From a virus: DNA of 45,926 nt. The position numbers and the translations under genes are program-made. The notes beneath the pieces were generated by a model. The model saw only the letters and a list, made by a program, of their open reading frames with translations, did no database searches and was not told the DNA's origin. Where the stretch lies: UHGV virus genome UHGV-0253013; one strand, written 5' to 3'. The number at the start of each line of letters is the position of its first letter. The first letter of the stretch is position 1. Shown one piece after another: positions 1 through 45,926 of the stretch.

Positions 1-1273
1 CGACCGTCGTCGTGGTTGCTTGCAGTACGGCGGGGCAAAACGCACTTTGCGGTGGGCGGGTAAAGGCTTCCAACCACAGAACCTGGCGCGCGGGTACTAT
101 CACGATGATGAACTGGATAAAGGCATTTCAGCGTTACTTAAAGGCCGGGCACACCGCCGTTTTGATGTAGCCAAGCTAACGGCATCGACGGTACGTAGCT
201 GCATCATACCGGAAGTGGGGCATAAGTTTGTTGTTGCCGATTACTCTAACGTTGAGGGTCGTGGGCTTGCGTGGTTGGCAGGCGAAGAAACCGCGCTTGA
301 TACTTTCCGCGCCGGGTTGGATATTTATTGCGTAACTGCAGGTAAGATGTTTGGCATGGACCCCGACGATATTAAGAAAAACTTTAAGGAAATCAGACAG
401 ATAGGCAAAGCATGCGAACTGGGCCTCGGCTACGAGGGAGGCGTCGGAGCATTCGTTACGTTCGCCAAAAACTTAGGCCTCGACCTTATTGAGATGGCTA
501 AAACAATGGACGGTACATTCCCGGACCACATCTGGTCAGCCACCGCGAGAGGATATGAATGGGCGCGCATCCAGGAAGCCAAGCGCCCCCCGCATCCAGG
601 TGAGAAGGATGACCGACCATCGTATATTCTGGACAAGAAAGTGTGGCGCACCTGCGACGCAATCAAGCGTATGTGGCGCGAGTCACACCCGGAAACAGTA
701 GCGTTCTGGCGCGACCTCAAAGACGGTATTTTAGCCGCTGTAAGAAATCCGGGTCGTGAATTTTGGGCGGGGGCGCATCTGCGCAAGAATGGCGAGCGCG
801 CTATCCGAATCTGGAGAACAGTAGAAACCGATTCATCCGGTAGGAAGGTTCCCGGTTGGTGGTTGTGTATGGAGTTGCCGTCGGGCCGTATCCTCTCGTA
901 TCCAGGAATCGGCGTTAGCGTGACAAAAGAAACAGACGAAGACGGACGGGTAAACACGAATGTGCGAATCAAGTACCAAGGTGAAAACCAGTTAACCCGC
1001 CAATGGACTACCCTGTACACACACGGCGGCAAAGCCTGCGAAAACATTGTTCAGGCGCTGTGCCGTGATTTACTCGCATATGCGATGATTAATGTTGAGG
1101 GTGGCGGGTATCCCATCGTGCTTTCGGTACACGATGAACTGGTATGTGAAACTCCAGATACGCCGGATTACACGGTGCCTGAGCTGGAAAAATTAATGTG
1201 CGCGTTGCCTGAGTGGGCAGAAGGCTTCCCTCTTGTCGCGGAAGGTAGCGAAATGTACAGATATGCTAAATGA
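1..1273 (+). CDS. DNA polymerase, family A (Pol I/T7-like), C-terminal polymerase domain; 5' end lies outside the window
   Basis: Frame is open from window position 2. Palm motifs visible: VVADYSNVEGR (motif A-like), RQIGKACELGLGYEGG (motif B-like), SVHDELV (motif C). Confidence 0.85.
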   Translation, partial: DRRRGCLQYGGAKRTLRWAGKGFQPQNLARGYYHDDELDKGISALLKGRAHRRFDVAKLTASTVRSCIIPEVGHKFVVADYSNVEGRGLAWLAGEETALDTFRAGLDIYCVTAGKMFGMDPDDIKKNFKEIRQIGKACELGLGYEGGVGAFVTFAKNLGLDLIEMAKTMDGTFPDHIWSATARGYEWARIQEAKRPPHPGEKDDRPSYILDKKVWRTCDAIKRMWRESHPETVAFWRDLKDGILAAVRNPGREFWAGAHLRKNGERAIRIWRTVETDSSGRKVPGWWLCMELPSGRILSYPGIGVSVTKETDEDGRVNTNVRIKYQGENQLTRQWTTLYTHGGKACENIVQALCRDLLAYAMINVEGGGYPIVLSVHDELVCETPDTPDYTVPELEKLMCALPEWAEGFPLVAEGSEMYRYAK

Positions 1274-1788
1274 TGATGATGGGGTGGTTTATGAGAGATT
1301 TAATTAATTGGCATGACCATTTCTACTACGAACCTGACACGGGGAAGATACGATGGAAGTATTCCCCGAGACACAGTATAAACGCCGGAGACGAAGCCGG
1401 TAGCCCGAGTAAGAGGGGCTACATCTGTATCGTCGTCATAGGGGTTAGTTACAGGGCTAATCGTATCGCGTGGGAGATGTATAACAATGACCGTTTAGGT
1501 CCTGATGATGAAGTAGACCATATAAATCACATCCTGGATGATAATCGTGCATGCAACCTTCGGAAAGTATCGCGTACTGATAACAACCGAAACGCATCTC
1601 GGAGAAAAGATAACAAGTCGGGTCTCACAGGTGTGCACTGGAACGCACGGGCAGCTAAATGGAAAGCATGTATATTTGTTGGCGGTAAACTTATATTCCT
1701 AGGCCATTATGGCAATATATTTGACGCTGCTTGTGCACGGAAATCCGCGATTGTTCGCTACGGCTTTCATGAGAATCACGGAGGTTAG
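1270..1788 (+). CDS. HNH homing endonuclease with C-terminal AP2-like DNA-binding domain (paralog 1 of 3)
   Basis: EVDHINHILDDNRACNLRKV HNH motif; C-terminal SGLTGVHW...KWKA...LG.Y...AA.AR AP2-like fold. Start codon uncertain (run of Met at 1270; MRDL at 1291). Confidence 0.75.
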   Translation: MMMMGWFMRDLINWHDHFYYEPDTGKIRWKYSPRHSINAGDEAGSPSKRGYICIVVIGVSYRANRIAWEMYNNDRLGPDDEVDHINHILDDNRACNLRKVSRTDNNRNASRRKDNKSGLTGVHWNARAAKWKACIFVGGKLIFLGHYGNIFDAACARKSAIVRYGFHENHGG

Positions 1789-2320: not shown

Positions 2321-2512
2321 ATGAAACATGAATATGACCGCAAACCAGCACGCGACATCGTACCTGGCGATATGATTTTCAACGTCAAGACGCGCCAGCC
2401 TGTTGCCGTTGATACGGTGTTCGTAGAGTCGAACGGTAAACTGGTTATCGAAGACGTAACAGGAAACGTTACCGCGTTCGGGCGTAAAGAGCTGGTTCTG
2501 GTGGCCAAATGA
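2321..2512 (+). CDS. hypothetical protein
   Basis: ORF with AGGAATTGAG upstream; stop overlaps the helicase start (ATGA). Confidence 0.4.
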   Translation: MKHEYDRKPARDIVPGDMIFNVKTRQPVAVDTVFVESNGKLVIEDVTGNVTAFGRKELVLVAK

Positions 2513-4974
2513 ATAAATTCACTAGAAGGCCTTATCAAAAGCTCATGACCTCGTTCATGCTGCAACACCCGCGCTGTAATATCTGGGCCAGTATGGGCAG
2601 CGGCAAGTGCCTGAAACGCGGGACTGAAGTTATTATGTTTGACGGTACGACCAAGAAAGTAGAAGACGTCATCGTCGGTGACGTGCTTATGGGGCCGGAT
2701 TCAACGCCTAGAAATGTACTGTCTCTCGGTAGAGGCCGGGAGATGATGTACGAGGTTAAACCGCGAAAAGGAGAGTCGTATACGGTCAACGAAAGCCATA
2801 TATTATCCCTGCGAACTACTACAGGGATCGCAAAAGGTTCATGGCCAGATGATACCGTTTTCGACATAAGCGTCCGCGACTGGCTTAAGTTGCCGAAATA
2901 TGTAACCGGGCCTAATGGGTATCTTAAGGGTTGGCGGGTACCTGTCGATTTTACAAGGAAAGAGCAGGACGAGGCTTTATTGCCTCCGTACCTTATGGGG
3001 TTATGGCTGGGCGACGGTACTTCGTCGTCTGGGGCCATAACATCAGGAGAGAACGAAAAGGAAATAAGGGCGTATCTTGAGTCGTACGCAGCACGTAATG
3101 GGATGCAAATACGAAAAGAAGGACTTACATGGAGTATATCTTACGGCAACACAGGTCATAAGAAGCACGGGTTTACACACGCGCTGAAATCGGCGGGTGT
3201 CCTGAACAATAAGCATATACCGCATAATTACAAATGCGGCGACCGGCGACAGCGTTTAGAATTGCTGGCGGGGCTTCTGGATAGTGATGGTTACTGCGAT
3301 TTGTCTAAAGCAGGTTTTGACTGGATTTCGGTAAGCGAGCGACTCGCTGATGATTTTTGCTATCTATGCCGTTCTCTTGGTTTCGCCGCTTACAAGAAGA
3401 AAACTCGTAAGCGTTGCGCAAACACTGATGTTTGGGGTGACTACTTTAGCGTATCAGTATCGGGCGATTTTTCTGAGGTACCTTTCGTGCGCGGACGCCA
3501 CCAGAATTTACCGAAGCGTAATATTAATAAGAACGTGCTTAACGTTGGGATAGAATCCATAACCCCGGTCGGCGTAGATGACTATTTTGGCTTCACTATC
3601 GACGGTGACAGTCGGTTTTTATTGGGGGACTTCACTGTCACGCACAATACAAGCTCAACGTTGTGGGCTCTCAACAGACTGTTCCGTAATGGGCAACTTA
3701 ATGACGACGACCGAGTGTTAATTCTGGCTCCTTTACGTGTTGCGTCCGGCACGTGGCCCGCGGAACAGGCACGTTGGAACTTCCCGTGTTTGCATGTTGT
3801 AGACGCAACTGGTTCAGAGAAGCGCCGCATCGCGGCGCTGGAGTCAGATGCCAACGTGGTGTGCACGAACTACGAAGTTATTGAGTGGCTGATTGACTAC
3901 TACGGCAAAGACGACTGGCCTTTTACGGTTATCGTTGCCGATGAAAGCACGAAGCTCAAATCATTCCGTAGCCGTTCCGGCGGCAGCAAGCGTGCAAAGG
4001 CGCTTAGCAAAGTGGCGTTCGGTAAGGTTAAGCGTTTCATCAACCTTACCGGTACGCCGTCGCCGAACGGCCTCAAAGACTTGTGGGGGCAGAACTGGTT
4101 TATCGACGGCGGAGAGCGCCTGGGGTCATCGTACACCGCATTCACAGACCGCTGGTTTAACTCGGTACAGAAAGGCAAATCAGCGATGGCACGTGAATAT
4201 CACGCACGCCCGGGCGCAGATAACGAGATTCACCAGAAGATGAAGGACATTAGTCTCACGATTGACGCCGCCGAGTGGTTTGGGTGTGAAGCGCCGATTA
4301 TCGTACCGGTCGAAATCGACCTGCCGAAGAAAGCGCGGCAGGCGTACATCGATATGGAGGAGAAGCTATTCGCGGAACTGGAGAGCGGAGAAGTTGAAGC
4401 GGCTAACGCCGCGGCGAAGACCTCAAAGTGCTTGCAGATTGCTTCCGGTGCCGTATATGTATCGGGGCCGGACGGCGAAGCAACGAAAGACTGGGAGAAA
4501 GTGCACGACACGAAACTTGATGCGCTCGAGTCGATTGTTGAGGAGTTACAGGGTGCGCCGTTACTGGTAGCCTATCAGTTCAAGCATGAACTGGAGCGCA
4601 TCCTTAAGCGATTCCCGCAAGCACAGGCATTTGCCAAAGGTGCTAAGGGTAATAAGCAGATGGAAGCGTGGAACCGTAGGGAGATACCTATGCTCCTGAT
4701 ACACCCAGCCTCCGCAGGCCACGGACTGTCGCTACAACACGGCGGACACCACATGGCCTTTATGAGTCAGGGGTGGAACCTGGAACATTATCTGCAGGTT
4801 ATCGAGCGTATAGGCCCAGTAAGGCAGATGCAATCCGGATACAAACGGTCTGTATTCATTTATCAAATAATAGCACGAGATACTCTTGATGAAGTTGTCG
4901 CCTCTCGTACAGACGAGAAAAGGTCTGTACAGGACGAACTACTTAATTATATGAAGCGCAGAGGTAAGAAATGA
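2509..4974 (+). CDS. SNF2/DEAD-like helicase, intein-containing
   Basis: Walker A MGSGK|...|TSS is split by the insert; downstream VIVADEST (DExx-like) and INLTGTPSPNGL (motif III-like). Confidence 0.8.
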   Translation: MNKFTRRPYQKLMTSFMLQHPRCNIWASMGSGKCLKRGTEVIMFDGTTKKVEDVIVGDVLMGPDSTPRNVLSLGRGREMMYEVKPRKGESYTVNESHILSLRTTTGIAKGSWPDDTVFDISVRDWLKLPKYVTGPNGYLKGWRVPVDFTRKEQDEALLPPYLMGLWLGDGTSSSGAITSGENEKEIRAYLESYAARNGMQIRKEGLTWSISYGNTGHKKHGFTHALKSAGVLNNKHIPHNYKCGDRRQRLELLAGLLDSDGYCDLSKAGFDWISVSERLADDFCYLCRSLGFAAYKKKTRKRCANTDVWGDYFSVSVSGDFSEVPFVRGRHQNLPKRNINKNVLNVGIESITPVGVDDYFGFTIDGDSRFLLGDFTVTHNTSSTLWALNRLFRNGQLNDDDRVLILAPLRVASGTWPAEQARWNFPCLHVVDATGSEKRRIAALESDANVVCTNYEVIEWLIDYYGKDDWPFTVIVADESTKLKSFRSRSGGSKRAKALSKVAFGKVKRFINLTGTPSPNGLKDLWGQNWFIDGGERLGSSYTAFTDRWFNSVQKGKSAMAREYHARPGADNEIHQKMKDISLTIDAAEWFGCEAPIIVPVEIDLPKKARQAYIDMEEKLFAELESGEVEAANAAAKTSKCLQIASGAVYVSGPDGEATKDWEKVHDTKLDALESIVEELQGAPLLVAYQFKHELERILKRFPQAQAFAKGAKGNKQMEAWNRREIPMLLIHPASAGHGLSLQHGGHHMAFMSQGWNLEHYLQVIERIGPVRQMQSGYKRSVFIYQIIARDTLDEVVASRTDEKRSVQDELLNYMKRRGKK
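2608..3648 (+). mobile_element. intein (347 aa) with LAGLIDADG homing endonuclease domain, inserted in the helicase P-loop
   Basis: Starts with Cys directly after GSGK; ends ...VTHN followed by Thr (+1 nucleophile). Block B-like NESHILSL. Two LAGLIDADG motifs: LMGLWLGDG and LAGLLDSDG. Excision restores GSGKTSS. Confidence 0.8.
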
Positions 4975-5320: not shown

Positions 5321-7657
5321 TTAACTGTTTGTCAGGGTAGCCACTAATGTCTCAAGCGCTATAATCCTTTTCTCTAACTGAGCTGCTTTACGTCGCTGTA
5401 ACGCAGCCTCTAATATCAATACCTCATCATAACGAATACCATACCGCTCCCCTGCCGCCGTAGCTTTTGTTAATACTTCCCCAGATTCCTCATCAATAAT
5501 TTCCGGAGACGCTTCCCACTTATCGTAGCACAGGAAACCGTACTTAGTCGCGTCCAACCCGTGCCGGGTAAACGCCTCAATTGCTCGTTGGGCTACTACT
5601 CCAAAGTGCCACCTAGCTGCATCCTCCCCCTTCTCTGCAACCCTATCCAGGTACTTATATTGAACTAAATTAACTTCAGCCCAAGCGTCTAACATAGCGT
5701 CAGTTAATTCCAGGGGTAGTGTCTTGGTTCTCTCGTCAGACGTAACCGTAAACGCTGTTTGAGTGAATCCGCCGGACAAAGCGCGACTTGCCGACCCGAT
5801 AGCGACGGTGTTTGCACTGGATGGTGTAATAGCCGTCGGGGCTATTTGAATATGCGCCGATGCGTCAGAGGCTAAGCGTAAATTACCCCCAACCAGAGAA
5901 ATAGTTCGAAAAGTACCATCAGATGTGAGTAATTTTATCTGAGAGGTCGTACCTCCACCAATAGCCAAAGATGTAGCCTCATCGGAAATTAGTCTGAATT
6001 TATCAGCTGACACAAAAGGCAATGCAGAAGTATCTATATACTTAGTGAACCACTCAAACCTACCGGACATGGACCCTATGTATTGTCCTATAGCGGGGGC
6101 GTGTACCACGTTACTGGTGGTAGTACCATCAATGCTAGAGGCCCCGGTTATAGTAGATAGTGAACTAAGAAGACTGTTCTTGGGTCCAGGGTGCTTTACT
6201 TCCACAAAGTTACGGGTAGTCCCTGTCTCTAGTGTAACAACCCCGGAAGCACTATACATAGGGAAAACCGATGCGTAGTTATTACTAGCTCCGTCTAAAA
6301 ACCTAATAGAAGTCGCGGTTTGCGTTTGCCCTAAACTATTAGTTCCGCTGCACCCAACCATTAGAATATTATCAGCGGCATTATAGTTGCCTTGTAATGT
6401 AACGCCGTGTGCTTGCGTGGCCTCGGAGGAGGAGTAATCAGCTAAAACATTTGTCACCAGATTACCTGAACCCTTGCCGGTGACCACAGCGGCATACTTA
6501 GCGTTATTAGCAACAACATTACTGATAATATTACTGCTAGGGGCATTGGTCGTCTTGGTGCCATTATAAACAACGTGCTGACAGCTTTGCCCAATGACGC
6601 CACTAACAACATTACATTTAGCATCTGTTTTCAACTCAACCGCCCCGAATTGGGGGTAGTTTCGGGCGATAACATCGTTGATTATAGTATTACTTGCGGA
6701 CTCAAACAGCACGCACCCCGCTGTTTTATTTGTAGCATACCCGGAGTAGTCGCCCCGTATGCCGCTTACAATGTATCCAGACGGACCCCCATCACTAGGG
6801 TATGCCATTAAACTAAATCCAGTTCCCTTTGCATTTTTAAAATCAATACCTTTAATAGTAACGTCCTGCCCACCGGCGAAGGAAACCTGCTGACCCTGTG
6901 TGGAGTCCGTTGCCTTATTTCCTACAATACTCAGGGTGCTAAGTAGCCCTCCTGCAGGTTTATCAAAGATTAAGTGGTTTCCAGAATCGTTTGATTGTTT
7001 TAAAACCCCACCCCCTGTTCCGAATAGAGAGCATGTCGGGTGGGAGAGTAGCGACGTACTATACTCCCCTTGCGGTACAAGCACCCCGTTACTAGCTGTA
7101 AGCGCTCGGTTAAGGGCGTTTGTGTAATCAGGGTCAGTACCTAAATAGAAGTCCAGAACGGAAACTACTTCTCTATTTTTATCGTGTTGCGTCCTGCCGA
7201 CAGCGTCGGTAAATGGTTGTCGGACGCCGACCATGGCATCACCTAATGTCGCATTGTCTGTGCTGGATAAATCATTGCGCAAATCCGGGTCAGTCTGCGG
7301 CTTCCAGTTAGCGCTACCAACCGGGTTAAACGATGCGGGGACAACAACCGGCAGAGTCCCGGTATACGAGTACCACGTCTTGCTTACAGGGTCATACACC
7401 ACTTTGTCGCGGTCATTAGCGGTTAACGTACCACCAGTGGAAAAGTCCCATGACACCGGAGAAAAACCAGCGTCACGCAACACGGCTGGTAACGTCTTTT
7501 GGGTCTGTCCAGTAACCTGATTTGTCGCGTAATCGATATCAGCGCCACCAGCAACACCGCCGGATTTGCCGGTGATAACCTCGGCTTCGAAAATCTGGTG
7601 TTTCTTGGCGGTCTGTAAATCCACCAGGCTTAAAACGTCACCGCATCCGCTTGACAT
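5321..7657 (-). CDS. tailspike / tail fibre with beta-helix body and C-terminal intramolecular chaperone (peptidase S74-like) domain
   Basis: 778 aa; Gly/Asn/Thr/Ser-rich repetitive middle; C-terminal region has an SDERTK (Ser...Lys dyad) motif and a terminal coiled coil; last gene of the tail module. Confidence 0.75.
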   Translation of the reverse strand: MSSGCGDVLSLVDLQTAKKHQIFEAEVITGKSGGVAGGADIDYATNQVTGQTQKTLPAVLRDAGFSPVSWDFSTGGTLTANDRDKVVYDPVSKTWYSYTGTLPVVVPASFNPVGSANWKPQTDPDLRNDLSSTDNATLGDAMVGVRQPFTDAVGRTQHDKNREVVSVLDFYLGTDPDYTNALNRALTASNGVLVPQGEYSTSLLSHPTCSLFGTGGGVLKQSNDSGNHLIFDKPAGGLLSTLSIVGNKATDSTQGQQVSFAGGQDVTIKGIDFKNAKGTGFSLMAYPSDGGPSGYIVSGIRGDYSGYATNKTAGCVLFESASNTIINDVIARNYPQFGAVELKTDAKCNVVSGVIGQSCQHVVYNGTKTTNAPSSNIISNVVANNAKYAAVVTGKGSGNLVTNVLADYSSSEATQAHGVTLQGNYNAADNILMVGCSGTNSLGQTQTATSIRFLDGASNNYASVFPMYSASGVVTLETGTTRNFVEVKHPGPKNSLLSSLSTITGASSIDGTTTSNVVHAPAIGQYIGSMSGRFEWFTKYIDTSALPFVSADKFRLISDEATSLAIGGGTTSQIKLLTSDGTFRTISLVGGNLRLASDASAHIQIAPTAITPSSANTVAIGSASRALSGGFTQTAFTVTSDERTKTLPLELTDAMLDAWAEVNLVQYKYLDRVAEKGEDAARWHFGVVAQRAIEAFTRHGLDATKYGFLCYDKWEASPEIIDEESGEVLTKATAAGERYGIRYDEVLILEAALQRRKAAQLEKRIIALETLVATLTNS

Positions 7658-27390: not shown

Positions 27391-27406
27391 CGGGGCCTTT
27401 TTCTTT
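27379..27406. terminator. bidirectional terminator between the DpdA-like and portal genes
   Basis: AAGGCCCC-ATAA-CGGGGCCTT hairpin followed by TTTCTTT; both convergent stops lie in or beside it. Confidence 0.55.
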
Positions 27407-28874
27407 ACTCCTGCTGTTGTGCCGACTGCGGAATCTCCCCCTCAACCTGAGTAACAGCACCTAACGGCATCGGCGCGTCTTCGATAGCGTTCTGAATGTC
27501 CTCGTCAGTCCAGTCAATTACACCTGCCTTGCGCAACGCAGCATAATAAGCGGTCGCTGGCAGCAGACCGGCGTTAATATCTGCCATCCACTGAGCACGG
27601 TCCTGCGCTGTCATCGGTTGCAGGAAGAACTCCATATTCAGCTTGAACTCAATCTCTGTGTCTCCACGCAATCCTAGCATCGCCGCTACCCAGCGCAACG
27701 CATCAGTATACGCCATGCTTACGTTACGTGCGATTGTCGCCATAACGGATGTATCAGCACCGCGTTGCAGACGGGCTGATTCGGCGGTGATTTGCTGCGT
27801 CGGGGTGATAAGCTGAGCGCCAATCTGAATGGCCTGATTCTCTTTATCCAGCATGTTCTGTTTGGCGAGGTTATTTTCTCCCGCCTGAACCAGAAACGCA
27901 TTGCCGCCGTAGCCAATGTTATGGCCTGAGCGCGACCCCATGCGCACGCCGTGAGGGTTGGCTTCTTTCCACTGTTCCATGCTCATGTTCTCGCCGGGGG
28001 CTATGAACAGAGTGGGCTGGCCTACAACGAAGCTGGACTCCTCATTGTCTGCGCTGTTGCGGAAATGCCCAATATTAAGCTCAGCCAACGGCAGCAAAGG
28101 TGCATCGTCAATGGTTGCATCGTTGTTGCTTGCACCAATGAACGTGAACGGGATTTTGCCGCGTAACTGTTCGCCAAGTTCCGGGAATATTTCGATTACT
28201 TCACCCTGAGCGCAACCTTCAGCGTCGAAGCGGTAAATGCGCTGGCGGTAGCGCCCGTCAATCAAATCTAGAACGCGGTATTGCTCACCGAACTTTGTTT
28301 CGAACTCTGCACCCGGTTCTGAGTATTCCCATACCTCACGCAACACAACCATAGTCACGCGGTTAACTGAACCGACGCGAGTCAGTCGCCAGTTGATGAT
28401 GTTCTCTGCGGTATAGAATACGATGACCGGGTTTAATAATCCCGCGTTCTGTTCGGCTGCCGTTGCTGCGGCGGTCTCTGGCGCATCAACCAGCAATCCA
28501 CCACGACCAACCGAGTCAATCTCCATTAGCGTATCCTGCGCGTGCTGCCACAGCCCGACACCGGAACCGTCCGTATTGCGCAACAGGTATTCCAGTTCAG
28601 GAGGGATAATCTGTTCAGGGTCTTTGCGCATCACTGACCCCACCACCCCCGCCAGGGTACGTTTAGTGAAGTTGTAGCAGATAGCACCATTCTCGTATTC
28701 TTCCTGTCGCTGTGCTGCGTAGGTCGGGTCAGGCTCGTTCTTCCCGACGTTGCGCAGGTAGCGAATAAGGTCGCCCTCCAGCGAGTGGCGTACCTTCTGC
28801 CATTTATCGAAGTGGTGCAGCCATTCCCGGTGTTTTGTCTTAACACCCTGATTCTGACCGTTCATAGTTAACAT
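27405..28874 (-). CDS. portal protein
   Basis: 489 aa ORF on the structural strand directly after the terminase region; size and synteny. Confidence 0.65.
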   Translation of the reverse strand: MLTMNGQNQGVKTKHREWLHHFDKWQKVRHSLEGDLIRYLRNVGKNEPDPTYAAQRQEEYENGAICYNFTKRTLAGVVGSVMRKDPEQIIPPELEYLLRNTDGSGVGLWQHAQDTLMEIDSVGRGGLLVDAPETAAATAAEQNAGLLNPVIVFYTAENIINWRLTRVGSVNRVTMVVLREVWEYSEPGAEFETKFGEQYRVLDLIDGRYRQRIYRFDAEGCAQGEVIEIFPELGEQLRGKIPFTFIGASNNDATIDDAPLLPLAELNIGHFRNSADNEESSFVVGQPTLFIAPGENMSMEQWKEANPHGVRMGSRSGHNIGYGGNAFLVQAGENNLAKQNMLDKENQAIQIGAQLITPTQQITAESARLQRGADTSVMATIARNVSMAYTDALRWVAAMLGLRGDTEIEFKLNMEFFLQPMTAQDRAQWMADINAGLLPATAYYAALRKAGVIDWTDEDIQNAIEDAPMPLGAVTQVEGEIPQSAQQQE

Positions 28875-29029
28875 AGATATAGACCCTCGGGTATGGGTGT
28901 CAAAAGCCTAATAAAAATTAGGTTGCAAGTCACCAGAAACTCGCTACTGCGAGTTTTACTTGCACCGGGCTGGCGGTCAATATATCTTATCATTAAGCAG
29001 ATAAAAATGAATTGTTGGAGGGGATACGT

Positions 29030-30409
29030 ATGGGCAGAAGAATAACTGAAGAAGAAATCAAAAACCGGTTAGCTATGTTTGGGTTTAAATTGGTTGAATA
29101 TGGCGGGTCGCAAGTAGCAAAATCCGTTATAAAATGCCCCAATGGACACGAGGAATTGAAGTCGCTTAACACCTTCACGGCTAATGGTGTGCGCTGTAAA
29201 TCTTGCGCTGCTGCTGAAAGGAGTCTGGCGTACAGCACCGACGAGACCGAAGCGAGAAGGATAGTCGAGGACATGGGGTATTCGCTGATAAAATACGGCG
29301 GCAATTTGTACCGCAAAAAATCTACCGTCCAATGTGCAAACGGTCATGTGCGCGAAGTTCGCATAGGAAATATGGTTAAGGGTCATCGCTGCAAAAAGTG
29401 CGTGGCGGAAGCAATGTGTTTGGCGGAAGACGTGGTTAACACCAGACTACCAGATGGGGTCAAGATGGATTTTTACTGCGGCAACACGCGGGGGCTTAGT
29501 CTATTTTCTTGCGAAAAAGGGCACTCGTGGTCCGCATCCGTGAATAACGTAGTGTCTCAACAAACGAAATGTCCTAAATGCTCTAATAACGTAAGTGGTA
29601 TGGAAAAAGAAGTTCTGTCGTTTATCCGCGGAGTATACCCAGGTGTTGTCAATACGTCCGTACGGTCGCTTATCTCGCCGTTTGAGCTGGACATAGTATT
29701 GCCGGAGATTAAGGTGGCCATAGAATTTAACGGCATCTATTGGCATTCCGAGGCGAATGGTAAACACCGTAACTACCACATAAATAAGAGATTAGCGTGT
29801 GAGAAACTTGGGTACAGGCTGATAAGCGTACGAAGCGACCTTTGGTTAGAGAAGCGAGAGCATGTTGAGCGCATTTTGAAGAACGCGGTAGGGGTACGTA
29901 CTGTGTCTATTTTTGCCAGAAAATGTCGTGTGGTAGAGATAGCCAACAAAGACGCATTCCAGTTCTGTGAGGACAATCACATCCAGGGTGGGACAAAGGC
30001 TACAAAAGCGTATGCATTACTTCACGCTGGTGAGGTGGTTGCGGTAATGACTTTGGTACATTGGCGCCGCAAGGACTCATGGGAACTGGTGCGATATTGC
30101 ACCAGTACGTCCGTGCCCGGTGGCCTAAGTAAGCTGTGGAAACATGTGACGCAAGAAAACAACATTAAGCAAGCGTTCACTTATACCGACCGTGACCTTT
30201 TCACCGGTGCATCTTACGCAGAAGCTGGGTTTATATTTGATAGCTGCTCCGTAGGGTTTCGCGTTGTCGTAGGAACTCGTACAGAATCCCGCCAGAAATG
30301 GGGCAAAGCTCCCGAGGGTCTTACCCAAACAGAGTGGTACGAACGAGAAAAAGTGTCGCGCATATGGGATAGCGGTCAGGATAAGTGGGAATGGGTTAAA
30401 GGGGCATAA
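29030..30409 (+). CDS. putative homing endonuclease: three Zn-ribbon-like repeats plus DUF559/Vsr-like nuclease domain
   Basis: ATG at 29030 after GGAGGGG. Repeats CPNGHEELKS...CKSC, CANGHVREV...CKKC, CEKGHSWS...CPKC; then ELDIVLPEIKVAIEFNGIYWHSE; opposite strand between portal and terminase. Confidence 0.5.
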   Translation: MGRRITEEEIKNRLAMFGFKLVEYGGSQVAKSVIKCPNGHEELKSLNTFTANGVRCKSCAAAERSLAYSTDETEARRIVEDMGYSLIKYGGNLYRKKSTVQCANGHVREVRIGNMVKGHRCKKCVAEAMCLAEDVVNTRLPDGVKMDFYCGNTRGLSLFSCEKGHSWSASVNNVVSQQTKCPKCSNNVSGMEKEVLSFIRGVYPGVVNTSVRSLISPFELDIVLPEIKVAIEFNGIYWHSEANGKHRNYHINKRLACEKLGYRLISVRSDLWLEKREHVERILKNAVGVRTVSIFARKCRVVEIANKDAFQFCEDNHIQGGTKATKAYALLHAGEVVAVMTLVHWRRKDSWELVRYCTSTSVPGGLSKLWKHVTQENNIKQAFTYTDRDLFTGASYAEAGFIFDSCSVGFRVVVGTRTESRQKWGKAPEGLTQTEWYEREKVSRIWDSGQDKWEWVKGA

Positions 30410-30421: not shown

Positions 30422-31672
30422 TTAAAGTGCGAAAGTCACCGGGATGTTGATTACTGGTTTAACCACCGGCATCTCGTAAACTACAGGATAGCCGAGAGCA
30501 TCCGCCATATGGTCAATGATGCCATCTTTAGCGGGCTCCCCGTTATCGTCGTATGCCTGCTGCTCCAGCGTCTTGGCTATCTCAGGACATAAGTGGTCGT
30601 TAACCCACAGCTTACCTTTTTCCAGCGCGGTATTCACTGCTAAAACACGGTCTTTAACCGGGGGGTTGGCGGATTTAGCGCGAACATCGAACCCGGCCTG
30701 CTGGAGTAAGGCGATGTCAGAGATTGACGCCGAGTTGGTTTTGCGGTTCTTGCCGCTGGCGTCCGGGTAAACGACGATGCGGTGGCCTTGCGACTTCCAC
30801 TTCTCAGTAATTACGCGCACGGTATCCGGCGTATCGAACAAGCCTTTCAGTTCTGCTACCGCGTGCCAGCCGTCTTTACGCTGCACATACACAGCGCTGG
30901 CGTTCTTCGTAACGTTGAAGTCCTGCCCGATGTACAGTGTGTCGCCTGGCTGGATTGTCTCTTTGCTGCGGTGCTTGTGGCGGTCGTAGGCGTAATACAC
31001 GCTGCCGGAGGTCAGGTTGACGAACTCACCGTTAAGGTACGCGTTAATCAGTTGCGCCGGGTAAGTCTCAGTCAGCGAGCTAATGTAATCCGGCGGCAGG
31101 AATCGCGCGTTCTCGTGTGTGGAGGCCTGCACCATCGAGTAACTCGGTGTCGGGTTCTCTTTGAACTTGGCGTAGACGAACTTGAACCCTTCAGGTGTCG
31201 TGGTGACGGAGATGTGGTTGGTTACTCCGGGGATAACCAGACGCATACGGGCGACGATTTTGTTCCATGCCAGTTCAGCTTTTTCTCGGCTCAGTACGTC
31301 CAGTTCATCCACGACCGCGGCGGCGATTTTGAAACCCACAATCGAACCGGGGTTATCCATAGAACGACAGATAACCGTTCCGAGCACCGTCTTACCGCGA
31401 GTAACCACGACCTCTTTGTCTCCGGATTTAACCAGCACATCGAGGCCGAGGAGGTTAGCCGCCTCTTCGAATGTCGGGTAGAAGATGTCGCGGATAGCTG
31501 GGTATGTCGGGCCGAAGTAGCCGAGGCGCGTACCGGGGTGCTTGAGCATAAACGTAAGCAGGTCCAGACAGCCGACAAATGTCTTGCCGCTGCCGAAACC
31601 GCCGACATAGGCTTTGTATTTGTTATCGCAATTCAGAAACAATGCCTGAGGGGCCGATAGCTGAATACTCAT
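30422..31672 (-). CDS. terminase large subunit
   Basis: Walker A GGFGSGKT near the N-terminus, 416 aa, directly downstream of the small-subunit gene. Confidence 0.8.
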   Translation of the reverse strand: MSIQLSAPQALFLNCDNKYKAYVGGFGSGKTFVGCLDLLTFMLKHPGTRLGYFGPTYPAIRDIFYPTFEEAANLLGLDVLVKSGDKEVVVTRGKTVLGTVICRSMDNPGSIVGFKIAAAVVDELDVLSREKAELAWNKIVARMRLVIPGVTNHISVTTTPEGFKFVYAKFKENPTPSYSMVQASTHENARFLPPDYISSLTETYPAQLINAYLNGEFVNLTSGSVYYAYDRHKHRSKETIQPGDTLYIGQDFNVTKNASAVYVQRKDGWHAVAELKGLFDTPDTVRVITEKWKSQGHRIVVYPDASGKNRKTNSASISDIALLQQAGFDVRAKSANPPVKDRVLAVNTALEKGKLWVNDHLCPEIAKTLEQQAYDDNGEPAKDGIIDHMADALGYPVVYEMPVVKPVINIPVTFAL

Positions 31673-38552: not shown

Positions 38553-38681
38553 ATGACGAAGTTAATAGTTCCACAGCTGCGCCGACAGAAACACGGCGCC
38601 GATTTCTTCGCGCCGGTAAAGATGAACCGCGCAATGCGCCGTATGCAGGAAGCCTTAGAACGTGCGGAGAAAAAGAAATGA
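38553..38681 (+). CDS. small basic protein (42 aa)
   Basis: ATG after AAGGA; stop overlaps the start of the primase/helicase gene; below the track size cut-off. Confidence 0.3.
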   Translation: MTKLIVPQLRRQKHGADFFAPVKMNRAMRRMQEALERAEKKK

Positions 38682-40900
38682 ATATTGTTTTTGCAACGCT
38701 GCGTAACACATTCGATAAAAACCCTGTAGCGCGTGAAATGCCGCTGGAGCAGTTTGTCGAGTATGTCTGCGATACATCGAAGCGTTTATCCGTGGACCCG
38801 TCATGGACTAAGGAAGAGTACGACGCTGCCAAGATTAAACAGAAAGCTATTGCGCCTGTTGGTGGTCGCCGTAAAAACGCTATCCTGGAAGACAGTGTGG
38901 TTAAGTTCGATTTCGACCATCTCAACCGTACTCAGTACCGCGACCTGACACGCAAATTCAAGAACGCGCCGTTCTTCAATATTCTGCACACAACGGCATC
39001 GCATCAGCACGCATGTAAAAACGGATATTACGCTTTCCGCGTTCTGGTTCCAGCTCGCACGCCGTTTAACTCTAACGACGCGTGGATGGTGCAACGTGCT
39101 ATTTGTGCAGAGTTAGAAATAGACGAAGCGTTGCGCGACCACTGCACAGAAGACGGCAACCGCCTTATCTACCTGCCGCATAAAGAGTCGAAGATAACGG
39201 TCACAGAAGGGCGCGTTATCCGCGCCGAGCGGTACATCAAGAAAGCCGAAGAGATGGGGTTGCGTAAGCGTGAGGCTAAAACACTTGCCGCTGATGAGCA
39301 TGGGCTTAACGCGGATATAGCACACTTCTGCGAAGCCGAGCTTGGCCTTGACGCTTTATCTTCCGGGCGCGGGTACGAAGTGCCATGCCCTAACGAACAT
39401 CTGCATACAGGCAAGGGCTCCACCAGCATAATGCTCGACGGTAAAGAAGTGCGCTTTGTCTGCCAGCATACAAACAACGGCGCTTGCACCGAGCTTAACC
39501 GTAGGCAGCATTTGGCCCTGCGTATGTGTGGCCTACCCGACGAGCTTAACGTAGATAAGCAACCTATCAGCATTAACAGCATTCGTGCGGCTCTGCCTGA
39601 TTTACCGGAAGAAGAGATTGAAGAACTACACCGCACAGAGAACGAGGACCCAGTAACTTGCAGCCTCGACGACCTGGAAGACGATGCGGAATCAGAGGAG
39701 GACGAGTTACCAGAACCGGTAAAGGCTGATTTCGTCGTTGAAGGGTACATGCCGTCGGATTGCATCTGGGATATCGTCGGGGAGTCGGGCACATACAAAT
39801 CGTTCTATACGCTGGGGATGATGTATCTTAGCGCCGCCGGATACCGGTTCGCCGGGGCGGACACCCAGCGTTGCCATCACTTCTATATTGATGGTGAAGG
39901 TGGTGCGGCTACACGTACACGTATCGATGCACTCGCGGCTAAATACGGCGAGGAAGGTAAAGATTATGTACATGTCATCGACATGGGTGAAGTCGGCAAA
40001 CTGAAAAACCTGATTAAGTTGATGCGTGAAACTGCTGGCGACGAGCCAATTGGGATGGTCGCGTTCGACACCCTTAACCAGACCCTGGCTCTGACGATTG
40101 ATAAGTTCGATGAGAACAGTTCATCGACGGCAATCGGCATGGGTAAAGTTATCGCCATCCTGAAAGAAGTACGCGACGCAACTAAAGCCGCGGTAGGCGT
40201 CGTCCACCATACCCCGAAGGGTGGAAAGAAAGCCCGTGGCAGTGGCGCGCTGTACGCAGGCGTCGATGTGGAACTGACAATTGAACGCGCAACCGACCGT
40301 CAGATAAATGTATACCACTCTAAATTTAAGCACGGGCCTCAACAGAAGACGGTTGGTATGGTGCTGGAGTCGGTACAGTTCCGTGAAGCCCCGCCGCCGA
40401 AAGAGTACCGTGCGGTTGAGTTCCTGGGTAGCACAGAGGAATACGGCACAATCGTAAACCTGGACCTTCCTGAGCCGCACAAGGCACTTGTGCTGATGCC
40501 GTGGGGATTCGAGCCGTTCAAGACCGACGAAGAGAAAGAGCGGGAAGAAGGGTTGACTAACGAAGGTAAGCAAAAAGTAAAGGAAGAAGTTAAACGCGGC
40601 AGGGATGAAGTAAGGAAGGAGTCAATACTTTCGGCACTGGAAGACCTGCAACAGTCAGATGACACAGGTCGCGGTTTTACTCAGCAGCAGATAGTTGCCC
40701 GTTCCGGTGACTTTTCTGTGACTAACACCCATCTTGATAAAATGCTGAAAGATGGCGAACTAATGCTAGGCTGTGACGTTAACGGCGAAGTAGTGCCGAG
40801 AACGTATCGTATACCTGAAAGAATAGGGGATAGACTAAGGCCGAAGACAATATACGAACCGAATGAAATGCTGGTGGTGACAGAGGAGGATTTGGAGTAG
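38678..40900 (+). CDS. primase/helicase-like replication protein with RecA-type ATPase domain
   Basis: 740 aa; Walker A GESGTYKS, Walker B-like GMVAFDTL, VGVVHHTPKGG; N-terminal domain with Cys/His cluster; acidic linker. Confidence 0.65.
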   Translation: MNIVFATLRNTFDKNPVAREMPLEQFVEYVCDTSKRLSVDPSWTKEEYDAAKIKQKAIAPVGGRRKNAILEDSVVKFDFDHLNRTQYRDLTRKFKNAPFFNILHTTASHQHACKNGYYAFRVLVPARTPFNSNDAWMVQRAICAELEIDEALRDHCTEDGNRLIYLPHKESKITVTEGRVIRAERYIKKAEEMGLRKREAKTLAADEHGLNADIAHFCEAELGLDALSSGRGYEVPCPNEHLHTGKGSTSIMLDGKEVRFVCQHTNNGACTELNRRQHLALRMCGLPDELNVDKQPISINSIRAALPDLPEEEIEELHRTENEDPVTCSLDDLEDDAESEEDELPEPVKADFVVEGYMPSDCIWDIVGESGTYKSFYTLGMMYLSAAGYRFAGADTQRCHHFYIDGEGGAATRTRIDALAAKYGEEGKDYVHVIDMGEVGKLKNLIKLMRETAGDEPIGMVAFDTLNQTLALTIDKFDENSSSTAIGMGKVIAILKEVRDATKAAVGVVHHTPKGGKKARGSGALYAGVDVELTIERATDRQINVYHSKFKHGPQQKTVGMVLESVQFREAPPPKEYRAVEFLGSTEEYGTIVNLDLPEPHKALVLMPWGFEPFKTDEEKEREEGLTNEGKQKVKEEVKRGRDEVRKESILSALEDLQQSDDTGRGFTQQQIVARSGDFSVTNTHLDKMLKDGELMLGCDVNGEVVPRTYRIPERIGDRLRPKTIYEPNEMLVVTEEDLE

Positions 40901-41256: not shown

Positions 41257-41757
41257 ATGGATACCAAATACATTAAAACGTCTATGTTCAGTTATGAACC
41301 AGAAACTGGAGTACTTCGATGGGCTGTAAAGAGGGGCAAGGTTAAACCAGGAGACGAGGCCGGATGTTTGGCCAAAACATGCGGGTATAGAATGGTTAGA
41401 CTAGACGGTGTGTTAACCCCGGTACACAGGATAGTATGGGATATGCTTAATCCTACGGATAAACTACAAGAAGGTGACGAAATAGACCATATAGACCACG
41501 ATAAACTTAATAACCGAGCTTCTAATCTTAGAAAAGTTTGCCACCTATCAAATATGCACAACAGGTCAAAGCACAAGAACAACACATCAGGTGTAACCGG
41601 CGTGTCTTGGGTGGGGAAGCAAAATAAGTGGTATGCGTACATATACAAAAAAGGTACAAATTACAACTTAGGATACTTTTCAAAATTTGAAGATGCTGTT
41701 TTCGCAAGAAAAGAAGCAGAAATAAAACTCAACTTCCATAAAAATCACGGAGAATGA
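41257..41757 (+). CDS. HNH homing endonuclease with AP2-like domain (paralog 3 of 3)
   Basis: EIDHIDHDKLNNRASNLRKV HNH motif; C-terminal SGVTGVSW...YFSKFEDAVFARKEAE...NFHKNHGE parallels the other two paralogs. Confidence 0.8.
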   Translation: MDTKYIKTSMFSYEPETGVLRWAVKRGKVKPGDEAGCLAKTCGYRMVRLDGVLTPVHRIVWDMLNPTDKLQEGDEIDHIDHDKLNNRASNLRKVCHLSNMHNRSKHKNNTSGVTGVSWVGKQNKWYAYIYKKGTNYNLGYFSKFEDAVFARKEAEIKLNFHKNHGE

Positions 41758-44997: not shown

Positions 44998-45926
44998 ATG
45001 AGTTACCTGTTCTTAGACTTTGAAACATTCTCCGAAGCCGATTTAAAGAAAGTCGGCTCCTACGCTTACGCCGAACACCCGACTACCGAAGTGCTTATCT
45101 GCACATATGCTTTTGACGACGAGCCTGTGCGGGTATGGGATTGCACCGACGGCAGCGACATGCCGGGTGATTTGCACCGCGCACTGCGCCGCCTGGTTAA
45201 GCCGAACAGTCGTATTAAGATGGTGTGGCACAACGGCTCAATGTTCGACAGGCTCATCATGAAACACTGCTGGGGCTTTGATATTCCCGTAAGCAACACC
45301 ATTGATACGATGATTTGGGCGTTTCGTCACGCGCTGCCGGGTTCACTTGATGCGCTGTGTGAAGTGCTTGGCGTGTCTGCTGACAATGCAAAAGATAAAC
45401 GCGGCAAGGCGCTGATTCAGCGTTTCTCTAAACCGACACCGAAGAATTACAAAATCCGCCGCTACACCGCAGAAACACACCCGGACGAGTGGGCGCTGTT
45501 CATCAAGTACGCCGTGAGCGACATCACTGCGATGCGTGAAGTCTTCCATAAGCTGCCGCGTTGGGGTAACTCTGAGTTCGAAGACCGTGTACTGGAACTG
45601 GACCAGTTAATCAACGACCGCGGGTTTAAGGTTGACGTTGCACTGGCGGAAGCCGCTATTGAAGCCGTGGAGAAACACAAAGCGCAGTTACAGGAGGAAG
45701 CCCAACGCAAATACGGCGGCTCGCTTACTGGTAAGGACTTTCTGCCGATTCTTCGTGAACTCGCCCCTGCACACCGCATACACAACGCACAGAAGTCGAC
45801 GCTTAACGACCTGCTGGCGGACGATGATTTACCGGACGACGCACGCACAATTATCGAAATGCGCCTGGGGGCAGCGTCCACTGCATCAACGAAATATAAC
45901 CCGCTGCTGTTAGGTCGCTCTTCGGA
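44998..45926 (+). CDS. DNA polymerase, family A, N-terminal 3'-5' exonuclease domain; 3' end lies outside the window
   Basis: ATG at 44998 after the leader ACTAAGGGTTGAAAATAATGA; LFLDFETFSEADL is an Exo I-like motif; frame still open at the last base. Confidence 0.8.
   Translation, partial: MSYLFLDFETFSEADLKKVGSYAYAEHPTTEVLICTYAFDDEPVRVWDCTDGSDMPGDLHRALRRLVKPNSRIKMVWHNGSMFDRLIMKHCWGFDIPVSNTIDTMIWAFRHALPGSLDALCEVLGVSADNAKDKRGKALIQRFSKPTPKNYKIRRYTAETHPDEWALFIKYAVSDITAMREVFHKLPRWGNSEFEDRVLELDQLINDRGFKVDVALAEAAIEAVEKHKAQLQEEAQRKYGGSLTGKDFLPILRELAPAHRIHNAQKSTLNDLLADDDLPDDARTIIEMRLGAASTASTKYNPLLLGRSS

Follow-up and report, generated by a model that had tools for sequence, protein, structure and literature searches.

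A probable class 1 intein of the PI-SceI type in the P-loop of an SNF2-like helicase from a Kagunavirus-like phage genome

The precursor gene and its insertion point

The 45,926 nt stretch of viral DNA analyzed here (the window) represents the full, circularly permuted genome of a Kagunavirus-like member of the Guernseyvirinae; its nearest record shows about 91% identity across 78% of a 24-kb stretch. The gene at positions 2509–4974 codes for an SNF2-like helicase split by a putative intein; its parts and the motifs discussed below are as follows:

2509–4974, + strand: intein-containing SNF2-like helicase precursor gene; single ORF of 821 aa plus stop, with Pfam matches to SNF2-rel_dom, Hom_end_hint and LAGLIDADG_3
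2509–2607, + strand: N-extein, 33 aa, ending with the opening residues of Walker A (A-S-M-G-S-G-K), from alignment with intein-less orthologues and direct reading
2608–3648, + strand: predicted intein, 347 aa, PI-SceI-like, with a Hint splicing domain and a LAGLIDADG homing endonuclease, from profiles, PI-SceI and the gap against orthologues
2608–2610, + strand: block A nucleophile Cys1 (TGC)
2788–2799, + strand: block B, N61-E-S-H64, NxxH as in PI-SceI
2992–3018, + strand: LAGLIDADG motif 1, LMGLWLGDG, with catalytic Asp136; aligns with LLGLWIGDG from PI-SceI
3265–3291, + strand: LAGLIDADG motif 2, LAGLLDSDG, with catalytic Asp227; Pfam LAGLIDADG_3 spans intein residues 215–270
3574–3648, + strand: blocks F and G, VDDYFGFTIDGD ... 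FLLGDFTVTHN, ending in His346-Asn347; aligns with the PI-SceI C-terminus, DDYYGITL..FLLANQVVVHN
3649–4974, + strand: C-extein, 441 aa plus stop, from direct reading and alignment with intein-less orthologues

The ORF contains no internal stops across its 821-aa translation, and the precursor reads NIWASMGSGK(33) / C34 LKRGTEVIMFDG ... FLLGDFTVTHN380 / T381 SSTLWALNRL. The insert comprises exactly 1041 nt, or 347 in-frame codons, from the Cys1 codon to the terminal Asn (3646–3648), and the first residue of the C-extein, Thr+1 (3649–3651), is at once the splice nucleophile and the Thr of Walker A. Comparison with orthologues of 84–91% nucleotide identity showed that these same 347 codons are missing from them and that their P-loop is continuous, reading GSGKS or GGGKT in the intein-free alleles; their length of 474 aa equals that of the precursor minus the insert (821 − 347), and the alignment gap matches the insert exactly. 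A reading of the sequence alone had proposed that an insert at 2608–3648, beginning with Cys and ending in THN before a Thr, splits Walker A; reading of the codons bears out both ends, the position is right to the base (ASMGSGK / T), and the alignment with intein-free homologues that it suggested as a check places the 347-aa gap at the same point. Likewise, its expectation that removal of the insert restores the P-loop holds for the product spliced in silico, in which SNF2 motif I is contiguous.

Intein anatomy and the interrupted ATPase

The insert was recognized by Pfam profiles Hom_end_hint (PF05203; E = 2.8e-22, 80.3 bits, cut-off 32.1) and LAGLIDADG_3 (PF14528; E = 1e-7, 32.6 bits, cut-off 22.5), with Hom_end (PF05204) remaining marginally below threshold (20.8 bits, cut-off 21.1); a search of NCBIfam returned only matches far under threshold. 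Its top match in the PDB is PI-SceI (E = 4.8e-16), with an alignment extending over the endonuclease core as well as the ends involved in splicing, followed by Prp8 inteins at about 1e-11. Such matches go well past what chance would give. We compared residues among eight inteins, three of them from other hosts or sites (the SP-031 helicase, the SF2 helicase from Klebsiella phage RCIP0061 and the TerL from Segz_1), all three being inserted in P-loops. Residues C1, N61, H64, D136, D227, D332, H346, and N347 are invariant among the eight, with identities down to 40%, as are G131, W133, L134, and G135 in LAGLIDADG motif 1, L220 to D225 in motif 2, and G333 and D334 in the C-terminal blocks. Both LAGLIDADG motifs reported from the sequence alone were found, and the block B-like SHIL motif described there corresponds to N61-E-S-H64. 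One copy (F118P13) shows LGDS instead of LGDG in motif 1, and the translated intein contains several cysteines besides Cys1.

The in-frame insertion, blocks A and B, blocks F and G followed by Thr+1, and the match to a Hint profile and to a solved intein are those of a class 1 intein, while the presence of both catalytic Asp residues, with LAGLIDADG_3 scoring over its curated threshold, indicates a two-motif LAGLIDADG endonuclease. The insert is thus very probably a class 1 intein that carries a homing endonuclease of the PI-SceI LAGLIDADG type and is lodged in the P-loop of the SNF2-like helicase, and we infer that it is active both in splicing and in DNA cleavage. Translation would generate an 821-aa precursor with a broken ATP site, in which Cys1 would begin an N-S acyl shift and Thr+1 would attack the resulting thioester in a trans-esterification; cyclization of Asn347, assisted by His346, would then release the 347-aa intein, and an O-N shift would leave a normal K-T peptide bond, so that the resulting 474-aa helicase would have its ASMGSGKT P-loop intact. 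In mixed infections, the endonuclease of the free intein would cut the cognate site of an intein-free helicase allele, and repair templated by the genome that bears the intein would transfer it together with short flanks (homing).

Concerning the host protein, its score with SNF2-rel_dom increased from 35.6 bits with the intein to 46.1 bits after splicing in silico (cut-off 24.9), whereas the spliced product reached only 18.1 bits with Helicase_C, below its 23.5 cut-off. This product also matches PHROG 62 ("DNA helicase"; 1.2e-168) and structures of CHD1L and SNF2 (E = 2.6e-12 to 1e-8), with MGSGKT aligned without breaks to MGLGKT, and a DEST box is visible as motif II. These matches place the protein among the SNF2-family SF2 ATPases and uphold the SNF2-like identity given in the sequence-only reading. 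Its designation there as replicative found no support, because the window contains a separate gene (38678–40900, 740 aa) that matches AAA_25 (2.5e-17) and PHROG 3228 ("replicative helicase-primase"; E = 0), and whose counterparts in relatives are also labeled replicative helicase-primase. Replicative helicases are fork-unwinding ring helicases of the DnaB/RepA type, usually linked to a primase, and the SNF2-like protein showed no traits of such ring helicases or of primases. It is more likely an auxiliary helicase or translocase that belongs to the replication and repair module. The C-extein of the intein-bearing alleles is under strong purifying selection (dN/dS 0.025–0.079), and therefore the interrupted gene must still give a working protein, an indirect sign of splicing with ligation of the exteins.

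Distribution of the intein and signatures of homing

In the phage collection, the same intein occurs in 175 of the 453 records carrying the helicase, with 93–98% nucleotide and 95–99% amino-acid identity, and is absent from the other 278; among records of Escherichia phages, it was present in 4 of 103. The exact precursor protein was found only in one SRA-derived assembly. The intein shares 99.1% amino-acid identity (3 aa differ) with the one annotated in phage Shashou, and Shelanagig also has a GenBank intein annotation. In vB_SenS-Ent1, a GenBank mat_peptide with an identical start residue is described as "intein ... homing endonuclease of the LAGLIDADG type", the SETP3 record names the gene "putative intein containing helicase", and other members of the cluster are titled "intein containing helicase precursor" or "Hint domain-containing homing endonuclease". 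GenBank annotations thus already cover this family of inteins, the point of insertion and the LAGLIDADG endonuclease. A literature search retrieved no splicing or DNA-cleavage experiments on the Guernseyvirinae helicase intein; inteins in Jerseyvirus genomes are mentioned in passing, without experiments (PMC8425127).

No further inteins were found in the proteins of the window that were examined: the DNA polymerase, joined from the two ends of the window, comprises 733 aa with no interruption, and a Hint search of the terminase, portal and Mu-F-like proteins gave no match. vB_SenS-Ent1 carries an intein in its DNA polymerase. Phages dunkel, SF2, K22, fEg-Eco06, and RP180, devoid of the helicase intein, have a free-standing HNH or Toprim ORF by the helicase gene, and the window, Ent1, Shelanagig, and Shashou contain the intein and no such ORF. 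Strict exclusivity between the intein and an adjoining endonuclease was nevertheless rejected, since the intein-bearing ST1, ST3, and vB_StyS-sam have a homing endonuclease beside the helicase, and BUCT789 and EF2-1 have neither.

Nucleotide identity among intein-bearing alleles is 93–98% for the intein vs. 77–91% for the exteins, and dS is 4–10 times lower in the intein (0.09–0.28) than in the C-extein (0.7–1.15). For instance, Shashou and the window are 97.6% identical in the intein, 76.8% in the N-extein and 83.5% in the distal C-extein. The occurrence of near-identical inteins within divergent exteins, together with the low dS, argues for recent lateral movement, although part of the low intein dS could come from constraint at the DNA level and not from recent transfer. 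Within the endonuclease domain, dN/dS is 0.03–0.12, a purifying selection as strong as that on the splicing domain and the host gene.

Sequence variation around the insertion site was also unevenly distributed, because the 30-nt junction core differs in 0–2 positions among intein-bearing alleles and in 7–12 positions in all 11 empty alleles sampled. The cognate site in intein-bearing alleles is ...GCCAGTATGGGCAGCGGCAAG / ACAAGCTCAACGTTGTGG..., whereas it is ...TCGATGGGCAGCGGCAAG / TCGGGGGCAACG... in class A empty alleles (dunkel, K1ind) and ...TGCGGYATGGGNGGNGGCAAR / ACCTCNTC... in those of class B (fEg-Eco06, RP180). The recodings of empty sites include the change of the Ser codon AGT to TCG, K/T to K/S, and GGGK variants. 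No vacant cognate site turned up among 50,697 phage records, in which uninterrupted junctions reached at most 87.8% identity to it. The anatomy of the element, its exact insertion point, the conservation of its catalytic residues, these population signatures and its prior annotation are established.

The low intein dS, the purifying selection on the endonuclease and the recoded empty sites are consistent with recent homing, and we propose that homing in mixed infections caused the patchy and recent spread of the intein among Jerseyvirus and Kagunavirus phages. A stronger version, which we hold only tentatively and lean slightly against, is that homing of the intein is still active and recently took it from Jerseyviruses of Salmonella into Kagunavirus-like phages of E. 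coli, and that all surviving intein-free alleles are nuclease-resistant recodings of the P-loop; the recodings could instead stem from co-conversion. If true, lytic phages would offer a visible arms race, with a homing endonuclease on one side and an essential ATP-binding motif on the other.

As an alternative, the intein might have retained splicing while its endonuclease is inactive or has run out of targets, as in the late homing cycle, and now persist only through vertical inheritance and the usual recombination among phages. The lack of a vacant cognate site, the recoded core in every sampled empty allele, the LGDS motif of F118P13 and the slightly sub-threshold Hom_end score agree with this scenario. 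Against it, the endonuclease domain is as constrained as its surroundings, both catalytic Asp are invariant, intein dS is well below extein dS, and the nearest relatives of the intein reside in phages with divergent exteins (Shashou), all of which makes a dead endonuclease rather unlikely. Less probable still is the co-option of the intein as a conditional switch, with splicing and helicase activation tuned by redox state, metal ions or infection stage, as is reported for the DnaB and RecA inteins of mycobacteria. The location in the ATP-binding loop would make activity strictly dependent on splicing, the additional cysteines are compatible with such control, and conditional splicing is described for other P-loop inteins (e.g., PMC6195587, PMC7360933); however, any regulatory benefit must be dispensable, given the 278 of 453 records without the intein, and the distribution suits a selfish element. 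Finally, an ancestral or accessory helicase domain, or a non-splicing Hint/BIL-type insertion, has nothing but the in-frame translation in its favor and can be dismissed with hardly any doubt, because close orthologues have a continuous P-loop without these codons, related inteins occupy unrelated ATPases (TerL and another SF2 helicase), the complete signature of blocks A, B, F, and G is present with the terminal HN and a +1 Thr, the exteins are under purifying selection, and a permanent 347-aa insert in the Walker A loop of a P-loop NTPase is incompatible with ATP binding.

The intein among known systems

The discovery value of this intein is small: it is an ordinary element, because annotations of it already exist for numerous related phages of Salmonella and E. 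coli, and its site between the Lys and the Thr of the P-loop has been described as classic. It has, however, practical consequences for annotation. Pipelines often call the gene just "DNA helicase" or "hypothetical protein", and its proper annotation is a precursor with two mature peptides; additionally, the intein makes the helicase seem more similar to its Salmonella phage counterparts and can lead gene-based taxonomy of this otherwise Kagunavirus-like genome astray. The intein-bearing and intein-free alleles with recoded targets also constitute a handy natural data set on the homing cycle in lytic enterobacterial phages.

The helicase intein of Guernseyvirinae (SETP3, vB_SenS-Ent1, Shelanagig and the Escherichia phage Shashou) is the same element as that of the window, with the same insertion at residue 34 (GSGK / C...HN / T) and the same length of 347 aa; they differ by only a few substitutions, although the surrounding genome is distinct and Kagunavirus-like. 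The closest solved relative is PI-SceI, the VMA1 intein of Saccharomyces cerevisiae (PDB 1DFA/1LWS/1VDE), which shares the bipartite layout of a Hint splicing domain interrupted by a two-motif LAGLIDADG endonuclease and is also inserted in a P-loop ATPase. The two inteins hardly differ in block A (CFAKGT in PI-SceI and CLKRGT here), in both LAGLIDADG motifs and in the C-terminal FLL...V.HN. Conversely, PI-SceI has Cys instead of Thr at position +1, resides in V-ATPase subunit A and not in a phage SNF2 ATPase, and its splicing and cleavage are proven experimentally, whereas the intein of the window is known from its sequence. At 347 aa, the latter is also about 100 aa shorter than PI-SceI (454 aa); part of the DNA-recognition region is therefore probably absent, and the mode of target recognition is uncertain.

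Insertion between the Lys and the nucleophilic Thr is the "classic" P-loop intein site (Kelley et al., 2016, PMC5050341), also occupied by the mycobacteriophage TerL1-a intein, where the Walker A Thr likewise serves as the +1 residue. Inteins of the TerL1-a type are equally phage-borne, sporadic and endowed with a homing endonuclease, but their host is a terminase instead of an SNF2 helicase, and identity is about 27–32% over part of the intein. At the level of the host family, COG0553 SNF2 superfamily II helicases belong to the 15 bacterial proteins richest in inteins (Novikova et al., 2016, PMC4760082). The likeness to these HepA/SNF2-family inteins is drawn at that level; their carriers are cellular organisms (Actinobacteria, Cyanobacteria, Deinococcus, and others), whereas the intein described here is carried by a phage.

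Anatomy and insertion site of the helicase intein

The helicase precursor is a single uninterrupted ORF whose product, read off the DNA, starts with MNKFTRRPYQKLMTSFMLQHPRCNIWASMGSGK, followed by the Cys of the insert; both ends of the insert and the resumed host sequence were also read directly from the DNA.

Features of the helicase precursor
2509..4974 (+), precursor ORF, 821 aa
2608-2610 (+), TGC, Cys1, first residue of the insert
2788..2799, block B, N61-E-S-H64
2992..3018, LAGLIDADG motif LMGLWLGDG
3265..3291, LAGLIDADG motif LAGLLDSDG
3646-3648 (+), Asn347, end of the insert (...FLLGDFTVTHN)
3649-3651 (+), ACA, Thr+1, resumed host sequence (TSSTLWALNRL...)

The sequence-only reading had delimited an intein at 2608..3648, an interval of exactly 347 codons from Cys1 to Asn347, and the motifs it named (block B, given as SHIL, and both LAGLIDADG motifs) are all found in the translation. 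In Pfam, the insert matches Hom_end_hint, a PI-SceI-type Hint domain (E=2.8e-22; 80.3 bits, cut-off 32.1), and LAGLIDADG_3 (32.6 bits, cut-off 22.5). Its best solved relative is PI-SceI (E=4.8e-16), in an alignment that takes in the splicing block at the N-terminus, the two LAGLIDADG motifs and, at the C-terminus, ...FLL....VHN. At the level of sequence, these motif and profile matches are not due to chance.

The helicase gene was matched in 453 phage records, with full-length coverage in 169 of them, and the intein DNA alone in 175. Intein-free orthologues (dunkel, fEg-Eco06, Escherichia phage 26, SF2, BUCT789, Kenya-K22, LF7074P1, EF2-1, Ec1-ASingh and ST20) have 474 aa, or 478 aa in RP180 owing to a longer annotated start; 474 aa is 821 minus 347, and the gap in the orthologue alignment matches the insert, confirming the insertion point. 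Their P-loops read GSGKS(G/V)(A/S)T, GAGKSSAT or GGGKTSST. Upon in silico removal of the insert, the SNF2-rel_dom match, 35.6 bits for the precursor, reaches 46.1 bits and begins at residue 28, and the resulting 474-aa product matches PHROG 62 'DNA helicase' (1.2e-168) and aligns to the CHD1L and yeast Snf2 structures through motif I ('wasMGsGKTsst' versus 'gdeMGlGKTcqt'). These results uphold the SNF2-like nature of the host and, in silico, the recovery of a contiguous P-loop (SNF2 motif I) on removing the insert. The restored ASMGSGKT agrees with the Walker A consensus [AG]x4GK[ST], and the intein lies between the invariant Lys and Thr of this motif, the same Thr being the +1 splice nucleophile.

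Splicing residues and homologous inteins

The class 1 splicing residues are all present, namely Cys1, N61/H64 (block B), D332-G-D334 (block F), His346-Asn347 and Thr+1, and are invariant in eight inteins, down to 40% identity. A homologous intein occupies the identical insertion site in the helicase of Cornellvirus SP-031, and others split the P-loop of unrelated ATPases, namely another SF2 helicase from Klebsiella phage RCIP0061 (~50% identity; GGGK/C...HN/T, slashes marking the junctions; locus L007, 2501..3523) and the large terminase from Salmonella phage Segz_1 (~40% identity; GGRG/C...HN/SGKT; locus L008, 2001..3089). The RCIP0061 host helicase is annotated only as 'hypothetical protein', and the record carries no annotation of its intein.

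Splicing would proceed by an N-S acyl shift at Cys1, trans-esterification onto Thr+1, cyclisation of Asn347 and an O-N shift restoring the K-T bond. We infer that the precursor does splice, the best indirect argument being that the C-extein of intein-bearing alleles is under strong purifying selection (dN/dS 0.025-0.079), which would be unexpected with a permanently broken P-loop.

Signs of intein mobility, and empty sites

Nucleotide identity to the window is 93.0-97.8% for the intein, 77-97% for the N-extein and 82-90% for the C-extein; by this measure the host gene is less conserved than its intein, and synonymous divergence agrees (dS 0.09-0.28 in the intein, 0.7-1.15 in the C-extein). The phages with the nearest inteins are not those with the nearest exteins: the intein of Shashou is 97.6% identical to the window's (99.1% as protein), with an N-extein and a distal C-extein 76.8% and 83.5% identical. 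The endonuclease domain shows a dN/dS of 0.03-0.12 and both its catalytic Asp residues are invariant, so this domain has been under selection for function. Carriers make up 4 of 103 Escherichia phage records versus 168 of 331 from Salmonella phages.

The 30-nt junction core (-18 to +12 around the insertion point) differs at 0-2 positions among intein-bearing alleles and at 7-12 positions in all 11 sampled empty alleles, while divergence outside this core is similar for both. The changes include a switch of Ser codon family (AGT to TCG) and ACAAGCT to TCGGGGG just 3' of the junction. At the equivalents of 2590..2607 and 3649..3660, the empty alleles (loci L002, L003, L009-L014 and L017-L019) form two recoded classes, ASMGSGK/SG (...TCG ATG GGC AGC GGC AAG/TCR GGG...) and CGMGGGK/TSS (...TGC GGY ATG GGN GGN GGC AAR/ACC TCN...). 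A 99-nt vacant cognate site used as query against 50,697 phage records retrieved 193 uninterrupted junctions, none above 87.8% identity, and no empty allele with cognate flanks was found among these records. The recoded sites fit survivors resistant to the nuclease, and they also fit co-conversion of the flanks during homing.

Host helicase, genome context and known elements

The earlier interpretation stands except for the label 'replicative', since a separate gene encodes a helicase-primase candidate with an AAA_25 (DnaB/RepA-like) domain. Its product matches PHROG 3228 'replicative helicase-primase' end-to-end (E=0), relatives annotate the homologue likewise, and it is likely the fork helicase, distinct from the intein-bearing protein. 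For the latter, 'accessory dsDNA translocase or helicase' is the better description; it belongs to the replication and repair module, which comprises a DUF2800 PD-(D/E)XK nuclease, an Enc34-type SSB, PolA and VRR-NUC.

Other features of the window
38678..40900 (+), helicase-primase candidate, 740 aa
1270..1788 (+), free-standing HNH_3 endonuclease ORF between polA and the VRR-NUC gene, overlapping the polA stop
41257..41757 (+), free-standing HNH_3 endonuclease ORF
29012..30409 (+), 465-aa ORF between portal (27405..28874, -) and large terminase (30422..31672, -), on the opposite strand
5321..7657 (-), tailspike with a C-terminal Peptidase_S74 domain (endosialidase-type intramolecular chaperone)

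Joined in frame, the window ends (44998..45926 plus 1..1273) encode a family-A DNA polymerase that is intact at 733 aa, which indicates a complete circularly permuted genome of ~45.9 kb cut inside polA. This polymerase aligns without gaps to Shelanagig PolA (651/733 residues identical) and contains no intein across the reconstructed 733 aa, whereas that of vB_SenS-Ent1 is annotated with one. Among database records, E. coli phages of Kagunavirus type are the closest (~91% identity over 63-78% of a 24-kb stretch). The gene order around the helicase (PolA, VRR-NUC, 63-aa ORF, helicase, small ORF, converging tailspike) is standard for Guernseyvirinae. The position of the HNH_3 ORF at 1270..1788 is empty in Shelanagig, Ent1 and dunkel and occupied in Kenya-K22 and Shashou, so this is probably another mobile homing-endonuclease gene. 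The 465-aa ORF weakly matches CapR, the treble-clef zinc finger DUF4379 and MTES_1575, a restriction-endonuclease-like domain; it may be a moron or a nuclease gene that has been inserted. The tailspike counts as the second self-processing protein of the window; in Shashou, the closest donor of the intein, a K1 endosialidase tailspike occupies the equivalent position.

The exact precursor protein occurs only in an SRA-derived assembly, within a 317-member 90% cluster in which some members are named 'intein containing helicase precursor' and others 'Hint domain-containing homing endonuclease'. GenBank describes a 'putative intein containing helicase' in SETP3. The vB_SenS-Ent1 record has mat_peptides labelled 'helicase (extein)' for the host part and, for the insert, 'intein, encoding splicing domains and a homing endonuclease of the LAGLIDADG type', the latter starting at residue 34, as in the window. 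Shelanagig and Shashou have an 'intein-containing helicase' with intein mat_peptides, and T102, PIZ SAE-01E2 and 5sent1 are annotated likewise. The Shelanagig intein mat_peptide (locus L001, 3076..3852) stops at 259 aa, far ahead of the His-Asn that truly ends the intein at 347 aa, and is an annotation error in the public record. In the InBase registry, the helicase inteins of SETP3, SETP5 and SETP12 were entered as theoretical. The one mildly new angle is the clean signature that recent homing has left in the population, together with empty sites that are all recoded. Among bacterial proteins, SNF2/HepA helicases rank in the top 15 for intein richness (Novikova et al., 2016, PMC4760082), and the P-loop insertion termed 'classic' is the one that follows the invariant Lys and precedes the nucleophilic Thr (Kelley et al., 2016, PMC5050341). 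The window element is a textbook P-loop intein, already known and annotated in close relatives.
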